From a virus (Duplodnaviria; Caudoviricetes), in the IMG/VR virus record IMGVR_UViG_3300023218_000062: a DNA stretch of 64,000 nucleotides; one strand, given 5' to 3'. Shown here one piece after another: positions 3,865 to 60,511 of the stretch. Position 1 is the stretch's first letter. The number at the start of each line of letters is the position of its first letter. The position numbers were made by a program, and so were the translations under genes. Below the pieces are notes generated by a model. That model saw only the letters and a program-made list of their open reading frames with translations, did not search any database and was not told the origin of the DNA.

Positions 3865-3893
3865 ATTATATAGGTTTAAAAGACTATCGTCAA
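3865..3893 (-). promoter_or_regulatory. Sigma70-type promoter of the DNA polymerase gene
   Basis: Minus strand TTGACG-17 bp-TATAAT, 35 nt upstream of the ATG at 3830. Confidence 0.8.
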
Positions 3894-23700: not shown

Positions 23701-26700
23701 CCTCTTATTAAAAAATCCCCCTCAGAGAAATTTAAAATATTAGGAAATGGATCATTAACTGACGTGATTTTTTGTTTATTCTTTGTCAGTTTTTGGAAAG
23801 TTCTTATTTTTTCAGAAAGATTAAGTTTTACTATGGCTCTATGCCCATCATGGTGTAATATAGACCATGAATCTCTAATCTTGTATAATTGTGGCTCATA
23901 GAAGTTAGTTAGACGTATTACACTAGATGTAGCAATAATATTTGCTATGCCACTTTCATCGAAATAAGATGTTGAATCACCAAAAATCCTATCTAATCTA
24001 AAATCATTTTTGATGTATTCTATTATAGTAGATGGTGTGATATTTTTTTCTAGGATTTCTGGTAATATATCTAATACCCTGTTTTCTATTGCAAATAATA
24101 TATTTTGATATTGAGAACCTGCAAAATCTATAACATCGTTTACACTCACATTTCCTGAAGTTAATGCCGAAATTAATAAATCCCAATTTCCATTATGTTC
24201 TTTTATGGTCCCACCGATTCCCTCATTTATGTATGCTAACGCATGAAATATATTTTGAGAATTTCCGATAAGCATCGGATCACTTTGCACCAATTCTATT
24301 GTTCTAAAATGTCGGAAAACATCTATTAAACTAATTTCTTTTTCCAGCTTATGTTCTATATTGTAAAACCACGGATTAGGGATGTCCCAATCGGGTCCTA
24401 CCTTCTGTGGAACATATTGTTCATTTTTTCTGCCACGCCTCCAAATAGATTTTATTACACCATCTGTCAAATCTTTATAGCAAAGAAGGGTGCCATCTTC
24501 TTCTATTAATCCATGCTCAAATATAAAATCACTAGAATTTCTTTTTGTGGCTAATCTCCTAAAAACATAATTGTTTATAATAGCGTCATTTGATTCCTTA
24601 AACCAAAATATAGAATTGGATTTCTTTAGTGGATTTCCAAATATATCATACAATTTAAATTGTGGATATTGATTAATCTGCGTTTTGTTTTGTTCTACTC
24701 TACGATCATCTGAAATATTATAAGCATCTATTCCATAATCGGTTAGAACATTTACATCTTTTTTACCTATATCCTCTTTAAAATATTCTCCTAATTCGAT
24801 CCTAATTCTATCATCAGGCCCAGTTATTATATTTTCATCCAATTCTATATGGGTAGTATATTTACTATTAATACTTCCTTCATTAAAACGATCAAATATT
24901 CTTTCACCATTGATGTATACTCGTAAGTCTCCTTCTTGAAAATCTTCAAATAAACATATATTATGTAAACTCGGGTCAAATTCTAATCGCAGTCCTGCAT
25001 ATTCATTTATTGGATTAAACTCTTGGAAATTTAGTCCAATTATGCTTTCATATTCTTCTCCATTAGTATTTGTTGCAGTATACGAATTTATTACTTCAAA
25101 TAGCATAGGGTTAATTTCTTTATCTACGCTGCTCGAAGTTATTTCTTTAACGCCATTAAATATCCAATGATCATGATTGGGGTCAAACACATCTCCTTTA
25201 CTAGTGCGGCTGGGATAAATCAATGCCCCGGCTGGAGAATCTGAAAGATTAAAAAAAGATCCTAATATTTCAATTTCAGTGACATATCTTTGGTTAGGTT
25301 CAGGTTGTATGAATCTAACATCTTCTACTATGTACGTCGCATTATTATTATCAAATCCGGCAAATACTATCTTATCTCCGGAAGTAATATGTGATTCCAT
25401 GTTACCATATTTTTCTGGTAATCTAACTGTACTTGGCCCTGTATAGTCTAATTTATTGTCATTGTCTAATTCTATATTAGCTATTTCAAAAAGGGTTGGA
25501 CCTTCTTCAGTTGCTATATGAGTTTCGGATACAGAAGGTGAATATTTCCAATTATATGAAAAACTAGAAAACGCTGATAACTCAAGATATGATTCATATT
25601 CAATAATTGGCATTGCTGCTTGACGACTCAGTGATAAAGTACTTAGCTGATTTTTATGTGCCCAGTGATTATTTCGCGTCCAATCATTTTCTTCTAAATC
25701 GTTTATATTATCACTAAAATTTAATAATATAGAAAAATTTAAAATTTTATTTATCCACTGCCCTTCTACATATTGTTTTAATATATCATTAGAGTTGGTA
25801 TCATGCCAAAAATCATTTTCTGCAACTGTTGTTTTTTCTTCTAAATCAATTTCCCTAAAAATTGTAAATTCTTGATTATGTGCTGTAAAAAAATCCATGT
25901 TCCCATTAATGGTTATGCTGTTACTAGTATAAGAGTTTATTGTATAGGTACCTTTATTAGGCCCAGTTTCTATACTTATTTTATAAGATAAATTTGGGTC
26001 TAATACTGTAGTCAAATCTATATTATTTTGAATTATTGTGGATGCCCCTAAAACAGTATCTCCAGAAGTTGATAGTATTTTATTTTTCTTTATCCATATA
26101 GCTTTACCTATATCAAACACATCACTTTCTTGCACGGTAATTGCACGATTAGAATTTTTTAGATGTAAATATTTTTCTAATTCAAACGTAATTATAGGAT
26201 GTAATGAAATTTTTAAATAATTTTGTCCAATTAAATCATCTGAAAATACTAATGTTGTTATATTTGTTGTCGTATCGAAAAATACTTCTTTTACAATAGC
26301 AAGCTCTTGTATACTATTTTCAGTTGAATATAATGCAATAATCTGCCCTTCATTTATTTCTTGTAGATCTGAGCCTATTACAGAAACACTATTATTAGAA
26401 ATTGTGTGTATTGAAAAATCTAATTTAACATATTCAAAAAATCCAGAAAACTCTGGAACTATATTGTCATCTACTCTAGTAAGAGTTGTATCACTTTTTC
26501 TCACTAAGGTTCTTGTATTTTTATTAGTATCAAATACTATAAACAATCCGTCATCTTCATTGGCAATAATAGTATAAATGGAATTTGCGGATTTCGTATT
26601 TTGAACAACATTGAAAATTGAATTCTTCAATTGTTCAAAACGACCTTTTGAGTTATTTTTTTCGCTTTTGATGGTTATATATTCTGGAGAAGAATTTTGA

Positions 26701-38812: not shown

Positions 38813-40150
38813 ATGAAAATACAAAATATATTTCAACTAGTAGAGCAGACTCTTATTGAAATCTCGAAATATGGTGGAGAATCTGCTACTCATATGACTG
38901 ATAACGATTATCAAAGAGTTAAACAATTTCTGGGTAAGGTATTAGAAAAAATTCGCACAGAAAGTGATACTAATAGTATGCACCTTAAAAATTTAGCTGC
39001 TGCTCTGCAAAGTATTAGAAATGAATCAGCAGAAAAATATATGTTTGGTATATCATCATCTATTAAAAAATCAGCCGCCAATTCAGCCGATAGAGAGGAT
39101 GATGAAAAAAGGATACCTGCATTTTCAGGGCCAGAAGAAAAGTGGAGATCCATTGGTACACGACAGGCAGAAAATGTGGCATTAGTAGCTGATGTATTAG
39201 ACGACATGGGGTACGCCAACAAAGATTATGAGAGAGAAACTTTTAGAATTATTGATAGTCCGGCCATTGCTAGGATACGAGATATAGTCCGTACTGGCTT
39301 TGATAATGGAATGTCTACTGTAGATCAAGCATATAAAAAATTTGATGATCTTAAACATATTTATTCCGGAAAATCAGAACATCGCTTACAACCAGAGGAA
39401 GAACAATTATATGACCAAGCTGCCGTTAAAGAAATAACACCCAACGTAATGTCATTTTTAGCACAAATCATAAAAAAGAGAAAAAAAGGTGAAAAATGGC
39501 ACGAACATATAGATCCTCGTAATTATGAAAACGTCCGAGATAAAACCATAGGATACTTTACATATGATCCACATGAGGCTGCAGAAGATTTAATAAAGTT
39601 GAATTTAGCTATAAAAACTAAATCTGGTACATATACTCTGAATAGGGAAGGAATCAAAAAAACAGTAAAAGATTTTATAGAAACTGCCGAATCTTTGTTA
39701 TCCGGAGCAACATTGGTTGACCCAAGAAATAAAACCGGAGCACCCGGAGAAAATGAACGAAAAGTTCGAAACGTTATAGAATTCACCAAAAAACATTTTT
39801 CGGACAGAGTGTGGGATATGGCACAAAAAAATGTTTTCGAACTTATGCGAAACTTAGATGGGTCTGTAAAGAGTGCTTTAAGATTTTATATACAAACCAA
39901 AGACGAAATTGCTTCTAATACTGATACTCAAATAACAAGACACCAAAGAAATGTTGAAAGAACTATCATAGGAACCGTAATAGATTTTGCAACAGCTAAG
40001 TTTATTTTACGTAAAATGTTGTTTGATGCATCAGCAGTACTTGGTAAACCCAAGAAAAATGTCCCTAAAAATTTCGTCTTCCCCAAAGATGTTGCACTTG
40101 CTGGAAGAGCATATAGTAGAGGAGATCATAAAAGTAAATCCAGAGTTTAA
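38813..40150 (+). CDS. Hypothetical late protein, possibly an internal head protein
   Basis: The ORF track starts at TTG 38765, but ATG 38813 fits the late promoter; N-terminus MKIQNIFQLVE. Confidence 0.7.
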   Translation: MKIQNIFQLVEQTLIEISKYGGESATHMTDNDYQRVKQFLGKVLEKIRTESDTNSMHLKNLAAALQSIRNESAEKYMFGISSSIKKSAANSADREDDEKRIPAFSGPEEKWRSIGTRQAENVALVADVLDDMGYANKDYERETFRIIDSPAIARIRDIVRTGFDNGMSTVDQAYKKFDDLKHIYSGKSEHRLQPEEEQLYDQAAVKEITPNVMSFLAQIIKKRKKGEKWHEHIDPRNYENVRDKTIGYFTYDPHEAAEDLIKLNLAIKTKSGTYTLNREGIKKTVKDFIETAESLLSGATLVDPRNKTGAPGENERKVRNVIEFTKKHFSDRVWDMAQKNVFELMRNLDGSVKSALRFYIQTKDEIASNTDTQITRHQRNVERTIIGTVIDFATAKFILRKMLFDASAVLGKPKKNVPKNFVFPKDVALAGRAYSRGDHKSKSRV

Positions 40151-40151
40151 A

Positions 40152-40190
40152 TTGACAACTCCCTTCCCTCCCTGAAGGAAGAGATCTTCT
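40152..40190 (-). mobile_element. Solo IS200/IS605-like right-end hairpin
   Basis: Minus strand AAGATCTCTTCCTTCAGGGAGGGAAGGGAGTTGTCAA: imperfect hairpin ending in GTCAA, like IS605-family right ends. Confidence 0.5.
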
Positions 40191-40214
40191 TTGCTTTTTT
40201 GATAACTACAAAAC

Positions 40215-40245
40215 TTGACACACCTATCTCAAGCATGTATAAATA
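40215..40245 (+). promoter_or_regulatory. Overlapping sigma70 and late promoter with no downstream ORF
   Basis: TTGACA (40215-40220)-17 bp-TATAAA, the -10 box being part of TATAAATA (40238-40245). Confidence 0.75.
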
Positions 40246-40247
40246 AT

Positions 40248-40590
40248 CCTGTTCCGGATTGTACATGAAATTCGGAGCGACTCACAATTTGGAAAATCTC
40301 GAACAGGCTGCGCATAACGATTTTGTAGACTGCCGGAACGAGCCGATACTACGATGAAAATGGTATCCTTGAAGTGCTCTAAGGTCTGGATGAGAGATTG
40401 ATACGCTGAATAAGGCTTACGAGATTAGTTGATAGTGTATCAAATCTGGACTCATCGAAACGTTGTCATCATTCATCGTGATGATAGGGGCTCTAGATCC
40501 ATTTGGATTGTGTGAGAGTCGGCGGTTGCTATCATGTAATGGCGATACCCTCAACGACAGTACGAGGGAATCACGCCGATCTGTCTAGGT
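40248..40590 (+). ncRNA. Candidate large structured ncRNA of unknown family
   Basis: ORF-free and GC-enriched; helices 40248-60/40295-307, 40345-51/40361-67, 40389-407/40434-56; three-way junction 40519-40579; loop GACAG pairs with CTGTC at 40581-40585. Confidence 0.7.
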
Positions 40591-40607
40591 TGGAGTGGGC
40601 AATTTCC

Positions 40608-40829
40608 TAATTAAAATTTAATTTTATTTTAATAAAAATGGGGGAGGGGAGGATTGTAAAAACTCTTAGAATTTAGGGTTTCAACTCTTAGAAATTTACT
40701 CTCAGAAGTTAAATCGAAAACAACAATTGTAAAAAAAGACAATAAAAATGCGAGCGTCAGCGAGTATTTTTATTGTCTCTCTCAAATGAAAACAATTTTA
40801 AATTTTCAGCCAAAAACTGCGTTTTTGAC
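40608..40829. other. Origin-like module
   Basis: 32-nt pure AT tract 40608-40639; GGGGGAGGGGAGG 40640-40652; ACTCTYAGAA x3; 13-bp perfect hairpin 40737-40778. Confidence 0.5.
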
Positions 40830-40862
40830 GGGAGTTCTTTTTACAAGAACTCCCTCTTCTTT
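40830..40862 (+). terminator. Intrinsic terminator-like hairpin
   Basis: GGGAGTTCTT-5 nt-AAGAACTCCC followed by TCTTCTTT. Confidence 0.65.
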
Positions 40863-40943
40863 ATTACTGGTATTATATGTAATAACATGATATAATAAAA
40901 TACCTGTACAATATGAAAGTATTTTTATAATTTGGAGAAATAA

Positions 40944-42608
40944 ATGTCTTTACTAAATGAAACTGAACTCTTAAATAAAAAAGAGGAAGAGCTTATAAAC
41001 AATTTAAAAACAAGAACCATAGACAATAGTTGGAGTACTATATTACCCAAATATTCGCCTAGAGATTCACAAAAACATGTAATGCAATGGATTAATGAAT
41101 TACCTGCAAATGTTAAATACGTGATGTGTGAGATGCCTGTAGGTGGAGGAAAATCGCCCCTCGCCATGGCATTTAGTGGTTACATCAATAATGGAATGGG
41201 AAATGCCTTTATAATGACACCACAAAAGACATTGCAACGTCAATACGAAGAATCATTTGAAAAAGAAATATTAGCATCGGTATACGGGCGTAATAATTAT
41301 AAATGCGAATCAAAAAATACTACATGTGATGTTGGTTCTGATATAAAACCCAAATGTGAATCATGCCCTGCAAGTCAAGCCAGAGAAATAGCTTTAGCTT
41401 CACCTAATATGATTTTAAATTATAGTATTGCATTGACATATTTTAAGTACCTCAGACATAAAATACCTGCACGGGATGTCATGATATTTGATGAATGCCA
41501 TGTATTGGAATCACATTTGGTAGAATTCAGTTCATTGAATATTAGCAAGAATATGTGTAAGAAATATTTAGTAAAATTCAAAAAGCCGAAAGATTCTGAT
41601 GATGCTATTCATTTTTTGGAAAATGTATATCATCCTGCTGTATGTGAAAAAATTAGTGAATACAGAAAACACATAATGCAATTAGAGAATTCTTTTACCA
41701 ATAAGTTATCTAAGGCCGATATTAAAGTAATAAAAGCCTACAAGGCTGCTACAGAGCATAGAGACACAATTCAAGAGGTATTATCTACTGATAGAAAGTA
41801 TTTTGATAGAAAGTATGTTCTCATCGTAGATAATGATTACTTTAAATTTAAAGAATTATTTGGTAAAAACAATTTTAGAAATTTATGCTTGCCTAAAGCT
41901 AATAGGTTTTTATTCATGTCTTCTACAATATTGGATAAAGAAGGTTTCTGTAATGATTTAGGCATTGATCCTGAAGAAGCTGCAATGATTTCGGTAGATT
42001 CAGAATTTAATGTAGAAAACCGAGAAGTGGTATATAAACCCATTATAAAAATGAATTATGGATGGCATAGCCAAGAGCGATCCAATGATAGAAAGAAAAT
42101 GATTAAAACAATAAATCATATCTGTAATCATCATAAAGACGAATCAGGTATAATTCATACTGGAAGTTTTCAAGTATCAGATTGGATATTACATGCCATT
42201 GATGATACCCCACATGAAATAGTCCATCATAATCCTAGTGGTGAACGATCTAGAGATGATGCAATTGAATATTTTTTGGAGAATTCTCAATTGAGGCCAA
42301 TGATATTGGTTTCACCTTCTGTTACTGAGGGTATGGATTTGAAGGATGATCGTGCTAGATTTGGAATCATTACCAAGGTTCCATATCCATTCTTGGGTGA
42401 TGCATGGGTTAAAAGACGCATGCAACTGTCCAAAGATTGGTATAACCGTCAGGCTATTACAGGAATAATTCAGGGTTGTGGGCGTGTTGTACGATCCAAA
42501 GAAGATTGGGGACAGGTATATATCCTTGATGAGTCGTTTTCATATCTTTATAAACAGACGGTAAAGATGATCCCTCAATGGTGGAAAGACGGACTAATTG
42601 TACTCTAA
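40944..42608 (+). CDS. SF2 DinG/XPD-like helicase
   Basis: Motif I EMPVGGGKS, II DECH, III SST, V SPSVTEGMDL, VI QGCGRVVRS; Cys cluster C..C..C..CP. Confidence 0.9.
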   Translation: MSLLNETELLNKKEEELINNLKTRTIDNSWSTILPKYSPRDSQKHVMQWINELPANVKYVMCEMPVGGGKSPLAMAFSGYINNGMGNAFIMTPQKTLQRQYEESFEKEILASVYGRNNYKCESKNTTCDVGSDIKPKCESCPASQAREIALASPNMILNYSIALTYFKYLRHKIPARDVMIFDECHVLESHLVEFSSLNISKNMCKKYLVKFKKPKDSDDAIHFLENVYHPAVCEKISEYRKHIMQLENSFTNKLSKADIKVIKAYKAATEHRDTIQEVLSTDRKYFDRKYVLIVDNDYFKFKELFGKNNFRNLCLPKANRFLFMSSTILDKEGFCNDLGIDPEEAAMISVDSEFNVENREVVYKPIIKMNYGWHSQERSNDRKKMIKTINHICNHHKDESGIIHTGSFQVSDWILHAIDDTPHEIVHHNPSGERSRDDAIEYFLENSQLRPMILVSPSVTEGMDLKDDRARFGIITKVPYPFLGDAWVKRRMQLSKDWYNRQAITGIIQGCGRVVRSKEDWGQVYILDESFSYLYKQTVKMIPQWWKDGLIVL

Positions 42609-47884: not shown

Positions 47885-47913
47885 ATTATATATGCATGAT
47901 TTTTTGTAATCAA
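47885..47913 (-). promoter_or_regulatory. Sigma70-type promoter of the gp55-47-46 operon
   Basis: TTGATT-17 bp-TATAAT; SD GGAG before the ATG. Confidence 0.75.
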
Positions 47914-54129: not shown

Positions 54130-54849
54130 ATGCAAAAAGAGAAATTAACAAAAGTAATTGATGGTTTAGCTGAAGGTAATGATGTTAAAAGTCTTTTGTC
54201 TTCGATAATTACTGAAAAAACTAGGAAAATTTTAGGAATTGTCACAGAAACGGATGAATCAATTCACATTAAAAACAATGATGTTTTTGTTGGTAAACAG
54301 AAAGTTGGAAGTTTTACCGTAGAAGGCGATGACATTGAATTTGTTGATAGTGAAGGGAATTCTAAGACTTTTTCTACGGATAATGAAATGATGGAATATG
54401 TAGCTGCGTTGAACGAAGGTGAAACTGCAAAAATTGCTGTACAGCGTAGAGAAGATCGTTTGAAAAAAGTACATAACCGTCCACACGATAAAGATTCTCC
54501 AATGGGAGAGTATAAGAGAACCAAATTGGCGTCATATCATAAAGATCCTAGAATGGAAAATCCTAGTAACCATGAACATGGAAAGGATGACCCGTCAAGC
54601 AAGGATCTGAATGATACTTCAAGTGGTGGATCACAGAAATCTACAGATGGTCCTACAGGAGACTATGATAAACATGAACTATCTTCTAAGCATAAGGATA
54701 GTAGAATGGAAAATCCTAAAAAAAATGAACATGGTTTGGATGACCCATCTTTTGGTGATGAGATTACTTCAGGTGGTAAAGAGGGGTCCTCACCAGATAA
54801 AGAATATGATATAAGAAAAAAACATAAAAAAAATGACCACACGGTGTAA
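54130..54849 (+). CDS. Putative prohead core protein with internal duplication
   Basis: Immediately upstream of the protease gene (gp67/gp68 position); HKD(P/S)RMENP..(H/N)EHG.DDPS occurs twice; start moved from 54100. Confidence 0.6.
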   Translation: MQKEKLTKVIDGLAEGNDVKSLLSSIITEKTRKILGIVTETDESIHIKNNDVFVGKQKVGSFTVEGDDIEFVDSEGNSKTFSTDNEMMEYVAALNEGETAKIAVQRREDRLKKVHNRPHDKDSPMGEYKRTKLASYHKDPRMENPSNHEHGKDDPSSKDLNDTSSGGSQKSTDGPTGDYDKHELSSKHKDSRMENPKKNEHGLDDPSFGDEITSGGKEGSSPDKEYDIRKKHKKNDHTV

Positions 54850-60452: not shown

Positions 60453-60511
60453 CAAACTACTTTCGTTTTCAAGTTCAAGCTATTATAATAAATATATCAA
60501 AAGGTAGTTTG
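60453..60511 (+). promoter_or_regulatory. SD-sequestering hairpin with a late promoter in its loop
   Basis: CAAACTACTTT (60453-60463) pairs with AAGGTAGTTTG (60501-60511); AATAAATA at 60487-60494. Confidence 0.65.

Follow-up and report, generated by a model that had tools for sequence, protein, structure and literature searches.

A New Family of Large Structured RNA Encoded Upstream of a Helicase Gene in Jumbo Phages

The DNA analysed here, hereafter the window, is the whole 64,000-nucleotide (nt) stretch of IMG/VR virus record IMGVR_UViG_3300023218_000062 (Duplodnaviria; Caudoviricetes). Between two of its plus-strand genes lies a gap (40151-40943), part of which (40215-40590) a sequence-only reading of the window had proposed to be the source of a large, pseudoknotted RNA of no recognised family. 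This raises the questions of whether such an RNA exists, how it is folded, and what it might do for the phage. Comparison with related phages revealed a structured RNA core at 40250-40612 on the plus strand, in which compensatory change lies well above shuffled and slid controls, as is expected of a structured functional RNA, and which matches no family in Rfam. The proposal is thus borne out in kind, with one of its helices corrected, and the element represents a new family of large structured phage RNA. All features described below are on the plus strand unless stated otherwise.

Conservation, covariation, and fold of the RNA core

Eleven sequence-distinct full-length homologues and four partial ones were recovered, all from uncultured jumbo-phage contigs. 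Among the full-length members, L001 was found in IMG/VR through the downstream helicase, and L132 and L133 were found through a 3′ sequence block in IMG/VR and JGI metagenomes; the others (L124-L127, L271, L273, L276, and L277), together with the partial members (L128, L129, L275, and L278), were reached via homologues of the upstream protein and then their contigs. The homologue-bearing contigs span 246-298 kb and carry T4-like gp46/47 genes, and the genomes are therefore those of T4-like jumbo phages. Every full-length homologue shares the same gene order, namely a RuvC-like protein of 249 amino acids (aa), a 445-aa orphan protein, the element, and a Rad3/DinG/YoaA-type helicase, and the partial members conform to this order. 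The RNAs of the window and L126 share 93% identity, whereas the adjoining 445-aa proteins share only 69-74%. Moreover, about 65 RNA columns are invariant even where the 445-aa protein drops to 21-29% identity. This invariance includes unpaired nucleotides, a pattern that would point to an RNA that binds partners or catalyses a reaction. With covariance models built from five to seven members, all of the remaining ones are detected, at scores of 36-105 bits.

One and the same fold model emerges from RNAalifold, from single-sequence folds made independently, and from comparison by hand, and about 11 helices of the core are supported by covariation. Several helices are misaligned by MAFFT in the divergent members; the analysis therefore relied on covariance-model alignments together with a swap test, and pairs were counted on the alignments. 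In the 3′ half of the core, 92.6% of cells are paired, compared with 71.6% in shuffled and 39-49% in slid controls; 28 of the 39 pairs show change on both sides, and the covariation score is 0.59 versus 0.22, with none of 500 shuffles as high. Likewise, 93.3% of cells are paired in the 5′ half (78.0% shuffled, 33-42% slid), with a covariation score of 0.49 versus 0.20 that again none of 500 shuffles attains. As these alignments are fitted to the model structure, an alignment-light swap test was also run. Across 15 helices and 8 lineages, own strands score 809, whereas deranged partners score 583 ± 12 with a maximum of 624 over 7391 derangements, so that 0 of 7391 reach the observed value. The sequence-only reading had named conservation and covariation in relatives as a check on its proposal, and in 11 full-length homologues pairing indeed stands far above both kinds of control.

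The 5′ part of the core begins with P1, a hairpin (40251-40260 with 40269-40278) that is present in the minimum free energy (MFE) fold and is formed by a differing sequence in every lineage. Its own partners score 7.9 versus 5.1 for swapped ones; in L132, for instance, it is 12 bp long, and in L133 it is 7 bp long. In place of P1, the sequence-only reading had drawn a long-range first helix (40248-40260 with 40295-40307) coinciding with the predicted start; this helix can be drawn in the window (12 pairs, one mismatch) but is not conserved, since relatives form the local hairpin instead, and the coincidence with the start falls with it. P1 is followed by an unpaired junction, J1 (40284-40311), with invariant ACAAUU (40284-40289), AUC, and CAGGCUGC within GAACAGGCUGC (40301-40311). 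The CAGGCU of J1 can pair with GGUCUG (40383-40388), yet neither side ever varies, which makes this a candidate pairing only. Two further partners for J1 were considered and set aside. The long-range pairing of CAAUUUGG with CUAGGUUG in the MFE fold was rejected, as UAGG and CCUA pair locally in P10 and change together in L273, and the pairing of UUACAAU with a downstream AUUGUAA was found by sequence inspection in 3-4 lineages only. P2 (40312-40333) is a variable, optional hairpin present in the window, L127, L132, L271, L273, L276, and L277 and deleted in L001 and L133; its basal GCA/UGC covaries with ACA/UGU. P3 (40340-40343 with 40376-40379) occurs in variants including GAGC/GCUC, AAGGG/CCCUU, GAGAUG/UAUCUC, and GAAGC/GCUUC, and encloses the hairpin P3a (40345-40351 with 40361-40367), in which five of six pairs are compensatory. 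Next comes the near-invariant AAGGUCUG (40381-40388), whose GGUCUG never varies and whose second A is replaced by C in L276. The long hairpin P4, followed by a conserved GAAAC (40389-40461), has a conserved apical CGRGA motif, compensatory change at 9 of 15 pairs, and 94-96% of cells paired. In P5 (40463-40487), 7 of 10 pairs are compensatory and 96% of cells are paired.

The loops of P3a (40352-40360) and P5 (40472-40478) form the two halves of a kissing loop of 5-8 bp, in which CGAUGAA (40352-40358) pairs with UUCAUCG (40472-40478). Seven variants of this contact are found, CGAUGAA/UUCAUCG, AUGAUGAA/UUCAUCAU, CGAUGAG/UUCAUCG, UGAGAG/CUCUCA, AGAAC/GUUCU, GAAAAGA/UCUUUUC, and AGAGUA/UACUCU, the last of which was read from L277. 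In two of three divergent lineages, L273 and L276, the lineage's own partner is not outscored by a foreign one in either direction.

The 3′ part of the core starts with P6 (40489-40494 with 40515-40520), which encloses a small hairpin, P6a (40497-40500 with 40505-40508). Four of its six pairs are compensatory, 98% of its cells are paired, and its variants include GGCUCU/AGAGUC, GGUCCU/AGGAUC, GUAGU/ACUAC, and AACUCU/AGAGUU. A three-way junction follows (40520-40578), made up of P7 (40520-40524 with 40574-40578), P8 (40526-40532 with 40539-40545), and P9 (40548-40552 with 40564-40568), with compensatory change at 3/4, 8/8, and 5/5 pairs, respectively; single-sequence MFE folds give the same three-way architecture in 8 of 10 lineages. 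Just 3′ of P7, CUGUC (40581-40585) pairs with GACAG (40556-40560) of the P9 loop in an H-type pseudoknot, for which seven variants are seen (GACAG/CUGUC, GGCAG/CUGUC, GAUGGU/ACCAUC, GGUAG/CUACC, GAUAG/CUAUC, UGCUG/CAGCA, and GGUGA/UCACU). The core is completed by the hairpin P10 (UAGG 40586-40589 with CCUA 40606-40609), which carries a 16-nt near-invariant loop, UUGGAnnGGGnAAUUU. P10 is invariant in 10 lineages, and L273 alters both outer pairs while keeping the pairing (ACGG/CCGU). An alternative GGAN/NUCC pairing for P10 was rejected, its fourth pair being a U-U mismatch in several lineages. Apart from the first helix, the elements that the sequence-only reading had drawn by hand are present and covary in relatives, that is, the 7-bp helix now called P3a, the long hairpin at 40389-40456, the three-way junction with arms at 40526-40545 and 40548-40568 (closed by 40520-40524 with 40574-40578), and the pseudoknot between a junction-arm loop and a 3′ segment.

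Taken alone, the single-sequence folding energy of the RNA is a modest signal. The plus strand folds at an MFE of -112.3 kcal/mol (z = -2.17), and 3 of 100 shuffles are equally good. The longest open reading frames (ORFs) inside 40250-40612 encode 32-45 aa, and as close relatives carry 1-nt indels within them, no ORF is conserved; the description of this stretch as ORF-free therefore applies, in that nothing in it exceeds 45 aa. In 200-nt windows, the G + C fraction of the element is 0.44-0.465 compared with 0.26-0.34 in the flanks, which agrees with the contrast noted before and places the earlier figure of 45-50% slightly too high.

No Rfam family was matched, as had been claimed. The 4227 models of Rfam 15, which include GOLLD, ROOL, HEARO, OLE, raiA, tmRNA, RNase P, 6S, introns, self-cleaving ribozymes, riboswitches, and pRNA, gave no match in the whole window at the gathering threshold. 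At E ≤ 10, nothing credible was returned for 40250-40612, the lone row being a 15.6-bit match to a microRNA model with a gathering score of 69, and five relatives gave no match at E ≤ 1. ARAGORN detected no tRNA or tmRNA in the window, and no published description of this RNA family was found in the literature searched.

The promoter that points into the element was found exactly as previously described. It consists of a -35 box TTGACA (40215-40220), a 17-nt spacer with a conserved CAAG motif, and TATAAATA (40238-40245), from which an RNA start near 40250 is predicted. The exact composite TTGACA-17-TATAAATA occurs once in the window, and TTGAC together with TATAAATA is retained in nine of the ten relatives whose upstream DNA was available. 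TATAAATA itself is not enriched in the window (14 found versus 15 expected). The looser class TTGAC-9-TCAAG-4-TATAAT has seven sites in the window versus 2.2 expected, a count that none of 100 shuffles reaches; these sites lie at 1219-1247, 3865-3893, 25861-25889, and 47885-47913 on the minus strand and at 40215-40243, 54526-54554, and 60461-60489 on the plus strand, and one of them precedes a gp55/47/46-like operon. This promoter-like class carries a T(C/A)AAG motif within its spacer, four nt ahead of the -10 box. Judged from the promoter sequence alone, the RNA may be made throughout infection, as had been proposed.

Transcription of the element is weakly supported by two salt-lake metatranscriptome runs from different studies, which contain one contig of 319 nt (40284-40599) and one of 207 nt (40392-40600). 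At about 95% identity to the window, both fall wholly inside the element, with no flanking gene assembled, and this fits, weakly, an abundant stable RNA. Being contigs and not reads, they give neither strand, true ends, nor level.

Sequences 3′ of the core, neighbouring genes, and distribution

The element had been placed at 40215-40590. While that stretch itself holds, its end does not, since the 3′ hairpin P10 closes at 40609 and conserved features run on past 40612 in every lineage, to about 40864. The first of these is the hairpin P11, formed by AUUAAAAU (40610-40617) and AUUUUAAU (40626-40633). It is an MFE hairpin in all 10 lineages folded and was also read from sequence in L277; the sequences that form it are unrelated, for example CUAAUAU/AUAUUAG, UUUUAUC/GAUAAAA, and CCGGAU/AUUCGG, and these pairing changes were read off the folds by eye without a formal covariation count. 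P11 is followed by a polypurine box (40634-40652) composed of an A-run, U, five or more G, A, and G, with AAUGGGGGAG at 40637-40646. The box is unique in the window and stands at the same position in all 11 lineages, 25-45 nt past the core. A C-rich partner for its G-run was sought and rejected; the only one, CUCCCUUCCCUCCC (40158-40173), was found in the window, lies 5′ of the RNA promoter, and is absent in relatives. This C-rich tract comes directly after the stop of the 445-aa gene and is roughly complementary to the G-box at 40640-40652. A short ORF from the invariant AUG of the G-box (MGEG..., 40638-40676 in the window) was also considered, and as its stop varies to give 5-31 aa, coding is unlikely; the first 4-9 codons of this frame are conserved because the RNA sequence is.

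Downstream of the box lies an AT-rich variable region (40653-40734; AT 0.69-0.80), which opens with a conserved UAAAAAC(U/C)C. In the window lineage it contains direct repeats of AACUCUUAGAA spaced 22 nt. Repeats of 14-16 nt with an offset of 22 or 14 are significant in the window, L124, L126, and L127 (P ≤ 0.003 versus shuffles) and are marginal or absent in the other seven lineages (P = 0.05-0.7). The region is followed by H2 (40735-40785), a long A-U-rich hairpin that keeps an apical GCGARCG...AGYGAG while its stem sequence differs per lineage, and that may belong to the same transcript as the core. An intrinsic terminator with a 10-bp stem and a U-rich tail (40830-40864) is the only canonical one on the plus strand past the promoter and may mark the 3′ end of the transcript. 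If so, the primary transcript would be about 610 nt, of which the core makes up about 360 nt. Between the RNA and the helicase there are thus the H2 hairpin, the terminator, and a TATAAT-like box near 40878; the latter was recognised by eye, and the promoter scan lists none there on the plus strand.

The gene upstream of the element ends at 40150, and with its start taken at the ATG near 38813 it encodes the 445-aa protein (38813-40150). A collection of 1.8 billion representative proteins contains about a dozen homologues of this protein, and each of them belongs to this phage clade. It could be assigned to no Pfam, PHROG, or NCBIfam family, and its AF2 model (pLDDT 78) gave no match in Atlas, PDB (Foldseek), or BFVD. 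Its best VIA-align hit, at Z = 5.5, is under the stated noise level, and a likeness to winged-helix proteins, with rows at Z 3-5, was discounted as evidence. The downstream gene, which starts at 40944, 330 nt past the RNA, encodes the 554-aa Rad3/DinG/YoaA-type helicase. In L001 (L001:2744-5455), and also in L002 and L004, the helicase is 903 and not 554 aa long, and the extra segment in L001 follows the Walker A region and is intein-like, with a homing-endonuclease-like part. The RuvC-like 249-aa protein is encoded about 1.8 kb upstream of the element, and its sole family match is to phage Holliday-junction resolvase. Together with gp46/47-like genes, the resolvase and the helicase constitute a replication/recombination module around the RNA locus. 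Gene orientation in the window flips at about 36.4 kb.

Within the collections searched, the RNA appears to be restricted to one jumbo-phage clade. Among 50,697 phage records, no match was obtained with the RNA locus by blastn or with the 445-aa protein by tblastn. Unrelated loci searched with the covariance models gave no match beyond a single weak hit of the 3′-domain model R1 on an IMG/VR contig (L142:1206-1322; 18.3 bits, E = 0.002), which is probably spurious. Two sequence patterns were tried as well. CGAACAGGCTGCNCA proved too unspecific in viral contigs and returned chance matches only, and GAACAGGCTGC-N(55-85)-AAGGTCTG matched 19 times in viral and more than 120 times in bacterial sequence; only the matches in this phage clade carried the other motifs, the rest being chance. 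Word matches to part of the RNA locus come from lake, sediment, soil, microbial-mat, and salt-lake metagenomes of ten studies. At least six independent metagenomic contigs (L004, L128, L129, L131, L133, and L275) begin or end inside the RNA gene, probably because co-occurring strains share near-identical sequence there, as is the case with rRNA genes.

Judged by their helicase (47% identity), the Xanthomonas phages XacN1 and Xoo-sp13 and the Stenotrophomonas phages RAS14 and CM1 are the nearest cultured phages. XacN1, Xoo-sp13, and RAS14 share the order baseplate hub, small ORF, ~245-aa protein, ~350-aa protein, a 700-820-nt gap, and helicase. The gap is non-coding and syntenic (L279:3233-3916 in XacN1, L280:1720-2416 in Xoo-sp13, and L281:1606-2425 in RAS14), and it contains a conserved structured region of about 500 nt that is common to the three phages and includes a G-run. 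Its predicted structure has 97 pairs, 27 of them compensatory (z = -2.96 for XacN1), and is closed by a 13-bp long-range helix between an upstream C-run and the G-run (AAUAAACCCCCCG with CGGGGGGUUUAUU). No conserved C-run partner of this kind was found for the G-run of the window clade. The region matches no Rfam family and carries no RNA annotation, and in XacN1 a small minus-strand ORF has been called inside it. Models R1 and R2, run on the XacN1 locus as the only one of the three, gave no match, and no shared motifs were seen there. The RNA candidate of the cultured phages would be either a diverged homologue or an analogue of the RNA described here.

Possible functions of the RNA

What the RNA does for the phage can be approached through its fold and its setting. 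The reading that we favour, at a probability of roughly 45%, is a stable folded RNA that acts in trans, as a ribonucleoprotein (RNP) or as an RNA-only particle. The RNA would be expressed rightward, as a unit of its own, from the promoter in front of it; it does not code for protein and is not a leader of the helicase. P1-P5 make up a first domain, clamped across the long P4 by the kissing loop between P3a and P5, and P6-P10 a second domain, built on the three-way junction and locked by the pseudoknot. This fold displays the invariant or near-invariant unpaired ACAAUU, CAGGCUGC, AAGGUCUG, and the 16-nt P10 loop. These surfaces could then bind a conserved partner, which may be a phage or host protein, a nucleic acid, or further copies of the RNA itself via the kissing loop. 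Both the action in trans and the partner are putative.

Several points weigh against a trans-acting RNA. Binding of a conserved partner is a weak mechanism, and the 445-aa protein is tied to the RNA by adjacency alone. The expression evidence consists of contigs only, and in a DNA run, too, contigs break off at about 40491 and about 40601. In addition, the conserved P11, polypurine box, repeats, and H2 could mean that the unit acts in cis on DNA.

The main rival reading is an origin transcript, which we regard as possible, albeit doubtful. Its structured 5′ body would be followed by a persistent RNA-DNA hybrid at the polypurine box and AT-rich region that primes leading-strand synthesis. Such an origin would unite the principle of ColE1 RNA II with the R-loops of T4 oriF/oriG, and it would be the site of action of the 445-aa protein and the DinG-type helicase. 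The position of the locus in the replication/recombination module agrees with such a role, as does the promoter class shared with the gp55/47/46-like operon. The arrangement 3′ of the core is also suggestive, with an invariant A-run/G-run box in all lineages and then AT-rich DNA whose 22-nt-spaced direct repeats are significant in this sub-clade, and in the cultured relatives the locus retains a long non-coding gap with predicted structure. [quoted passage not shown] However, T4 origins have no sequence motifs in common (PMC3016281), which fits poorly with some 65 columns that remain invariant across very deep divergence. The AT-rich region here lies about 400 nt from the promoter, whereas it directly follows the promoter in T4 R-loop origins, and in 7 of 11 lineages its repeats do not reach significance. 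No conserved antisense regulator of the RNA I type was found, as the lone weak minus-strand promoter-like site (40287-40258; in a region with 2 promoter-like sites versus 4.2 expected from shuffles) has its hexamers in sequence that differs in most relatives. We know of no primer RNA for which a kissing loop, a pseudoknot, and invariant loops are required, and the elaborate tertiary fold is in this respect unlike known primers. Moreover, T4 shuts off R-loop origins late in infection, when the late-type box TATAAATA would keep this RNA being made. Finally, the metatranscriptome contigs stop short of the polypurine box.

A ribozyme, with a catalytic core that cleaves the RNA itself (for instance at its own 3′ end near 40600) or acts on another RNA, is improbable. 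The size of the RNA, its double tertiary lock, and its invariant unpaired nucleotides are typical of large ribozymes, and the two independent metatranscriptome contigs end at 40599 and 40600, in the conserved P10 loop. Yet position 40600 is the variable n of GGGnAAUUU in that loop, and strain variation there can explain the shared contig end; since the DNA run breaks nearly at the same place, at about 40601, this end may be an assembly artefact. In Rfam, the hammerhead, twister, pistol, hatchet, HDV, and glmS ribozymes, group I and II introns, and RNase P were not matched. A hammerhead-like reading of the CUG...GAAAC flanking P4 was rejected because the ANGA core is absent.

A cis-regulatory leader, riboswitch-like or protein-binding, that controls read-through into the helicase 330 nt downstream is very unlikely. 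Like a leader, the element lies directly upstream of the helicase in every case and in the same orientation. However, a canonical terminator and two further hairpins intervene, and in both the window and relatives the helicase is preceded by promoter-like sequences (recognised by eye; the scan lists none on the plus strand), and for these reasons the RNA is not taken to be the leader of the helicase. The spacer between the two also varies in length and sequence, and no known riboswitch was matched. That there is no RNA at all and that the element acts as DNA (protein-binding sites or a cruciform) or arose by chance is hardly credible, for while DNA hairpins would covary alike and no strand-specific transcript is seen, G-U/U-G positions in P5 and P6 are used in the plus sense and would be A-C mismatches on the other strand, the plus strand folds better than the minus strand (z = -2.17 versus -0.93), the kissing loop and pseudoknot are single-strand tertiary contacts, the promoter points into the element, and the contigs from RNA libraries are confined to it.

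A broader and more tentative idea, which we consider rather unlikely as it stands, is that jumbo phages carry a position-conserved "replication-module RNA" that is essential for genome replication or its control. Such an RNA could organise the origin, form an RNP with the helicase or the orphan protein, or multimerise through the kissing loop. The large folded RNA would lie between an orphan protein and the DinG-type helicase, and the form found in cultured XacN1-like phages would be either unrelated or diverged beyond recognition. If true, the replication-module RNA would be a new functional class of viral RNA. The fixed position in the module and the different candidate in cultured phages make a dedicated large replication RNA in jumbo phages a testable idea, and with XacN1, Xoo-sp13, and RAS14 the locus is open to study in culturable systems. 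Moreover, the clean comparative signal from only 11 sequences, which includes two covarying tertiary contacts, provides a reliable map of secondary and tertiary structure that is ready for probing.

Comparison with known RNA systems

The RNA was compared with several known systems. The omega-RNA or reRNA of IscB and TnpB, to which HEARO belongs, adjoins or overlaps the gene of a RuvC-type RNA-guided nuclease. This assignment was rejected, as the adjoining 445-aa protein has no family or fold, the RuvC-like 249-aa protein matches resolvase only, and HEARO gave no match. With group I introns, the RNA has in common that it is a pseudoknotted multi-helix RNA in a T4-like phage, and a short stretch at about 40548-40590 resembles them locally; by covariation, this stretch is made up of P9, its loop, the 3′ strand of P7, and the pseudoknot. 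An intron was nevertheless rejected because the element lies between two complete ORFs with no exons, has a different helix order, and shows no Intron_gpI match at E ≤ 10. The pRNA of phi29 is also a phage-encoded structured RNA with loop-loop pairing that covaries among relatives. It is 120-174 nt long, is located at the genome end beside packaging genes, and has its own Rfam model, which we take to be RF00044. In contrast, the core described here has no Rfam match and is found in a replication-gene context in a T4-like, myovirus-type genome.

The likeness to ColE1 RNA II and the T4 oriF/oriG transcripts lies in the combination of a promoter, a structured RNA, a purine/G-rich segment, AT-rich DNA, and replication genes. 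In ColE1, a G-rich segment of RNA II hybridises to the template near the origin and RNase H cuts the primer; to our knowledge, T4 origin transcripts are not known to be structured. Compared with both, the fold of the present RNA is far more elaborate and far more conserved.

Outside rRNA, RNase P, tmRNA, and introns, few RNAs above about 300 nt have a complex fold, and the newer classes OLE, GOLLD, ROOL, and HEARO each opened new biology or structural principles. By broad descriptive type, the RNA described here belongs with the large "ornate" RNAs of unknown function. As outlined in a preprint, ROOL and GOLLD assemble into RNA-only multimers (bioRxiv 10.1101/2024.12.08.627333). Like ROOL, GOLLD, OLE, and raiA, the present RNA is several hundred nt long, is composed of many helices with tertiary contacts, is phage- or environment-borne, and forms its own transcription unit, whereas it matches none of their covariance models. 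The contacts between subunits of ROOL and GOLLD include kissing loops, and by analogy the kissing loop of this RNA could act between molecules. In phage or prophage DNA, GOLLD and ROOL usually have tRNA genes as neighbours. In contrast, the 64-kb window contains no tRNA, and the RNA is flanked by an orphan protein and a helicase. It differs from ROOL, GOLLD, OLE, and raiA in being fixed in the replication/recombination module of what is, in the searched collections, one jumbo-phage clade.

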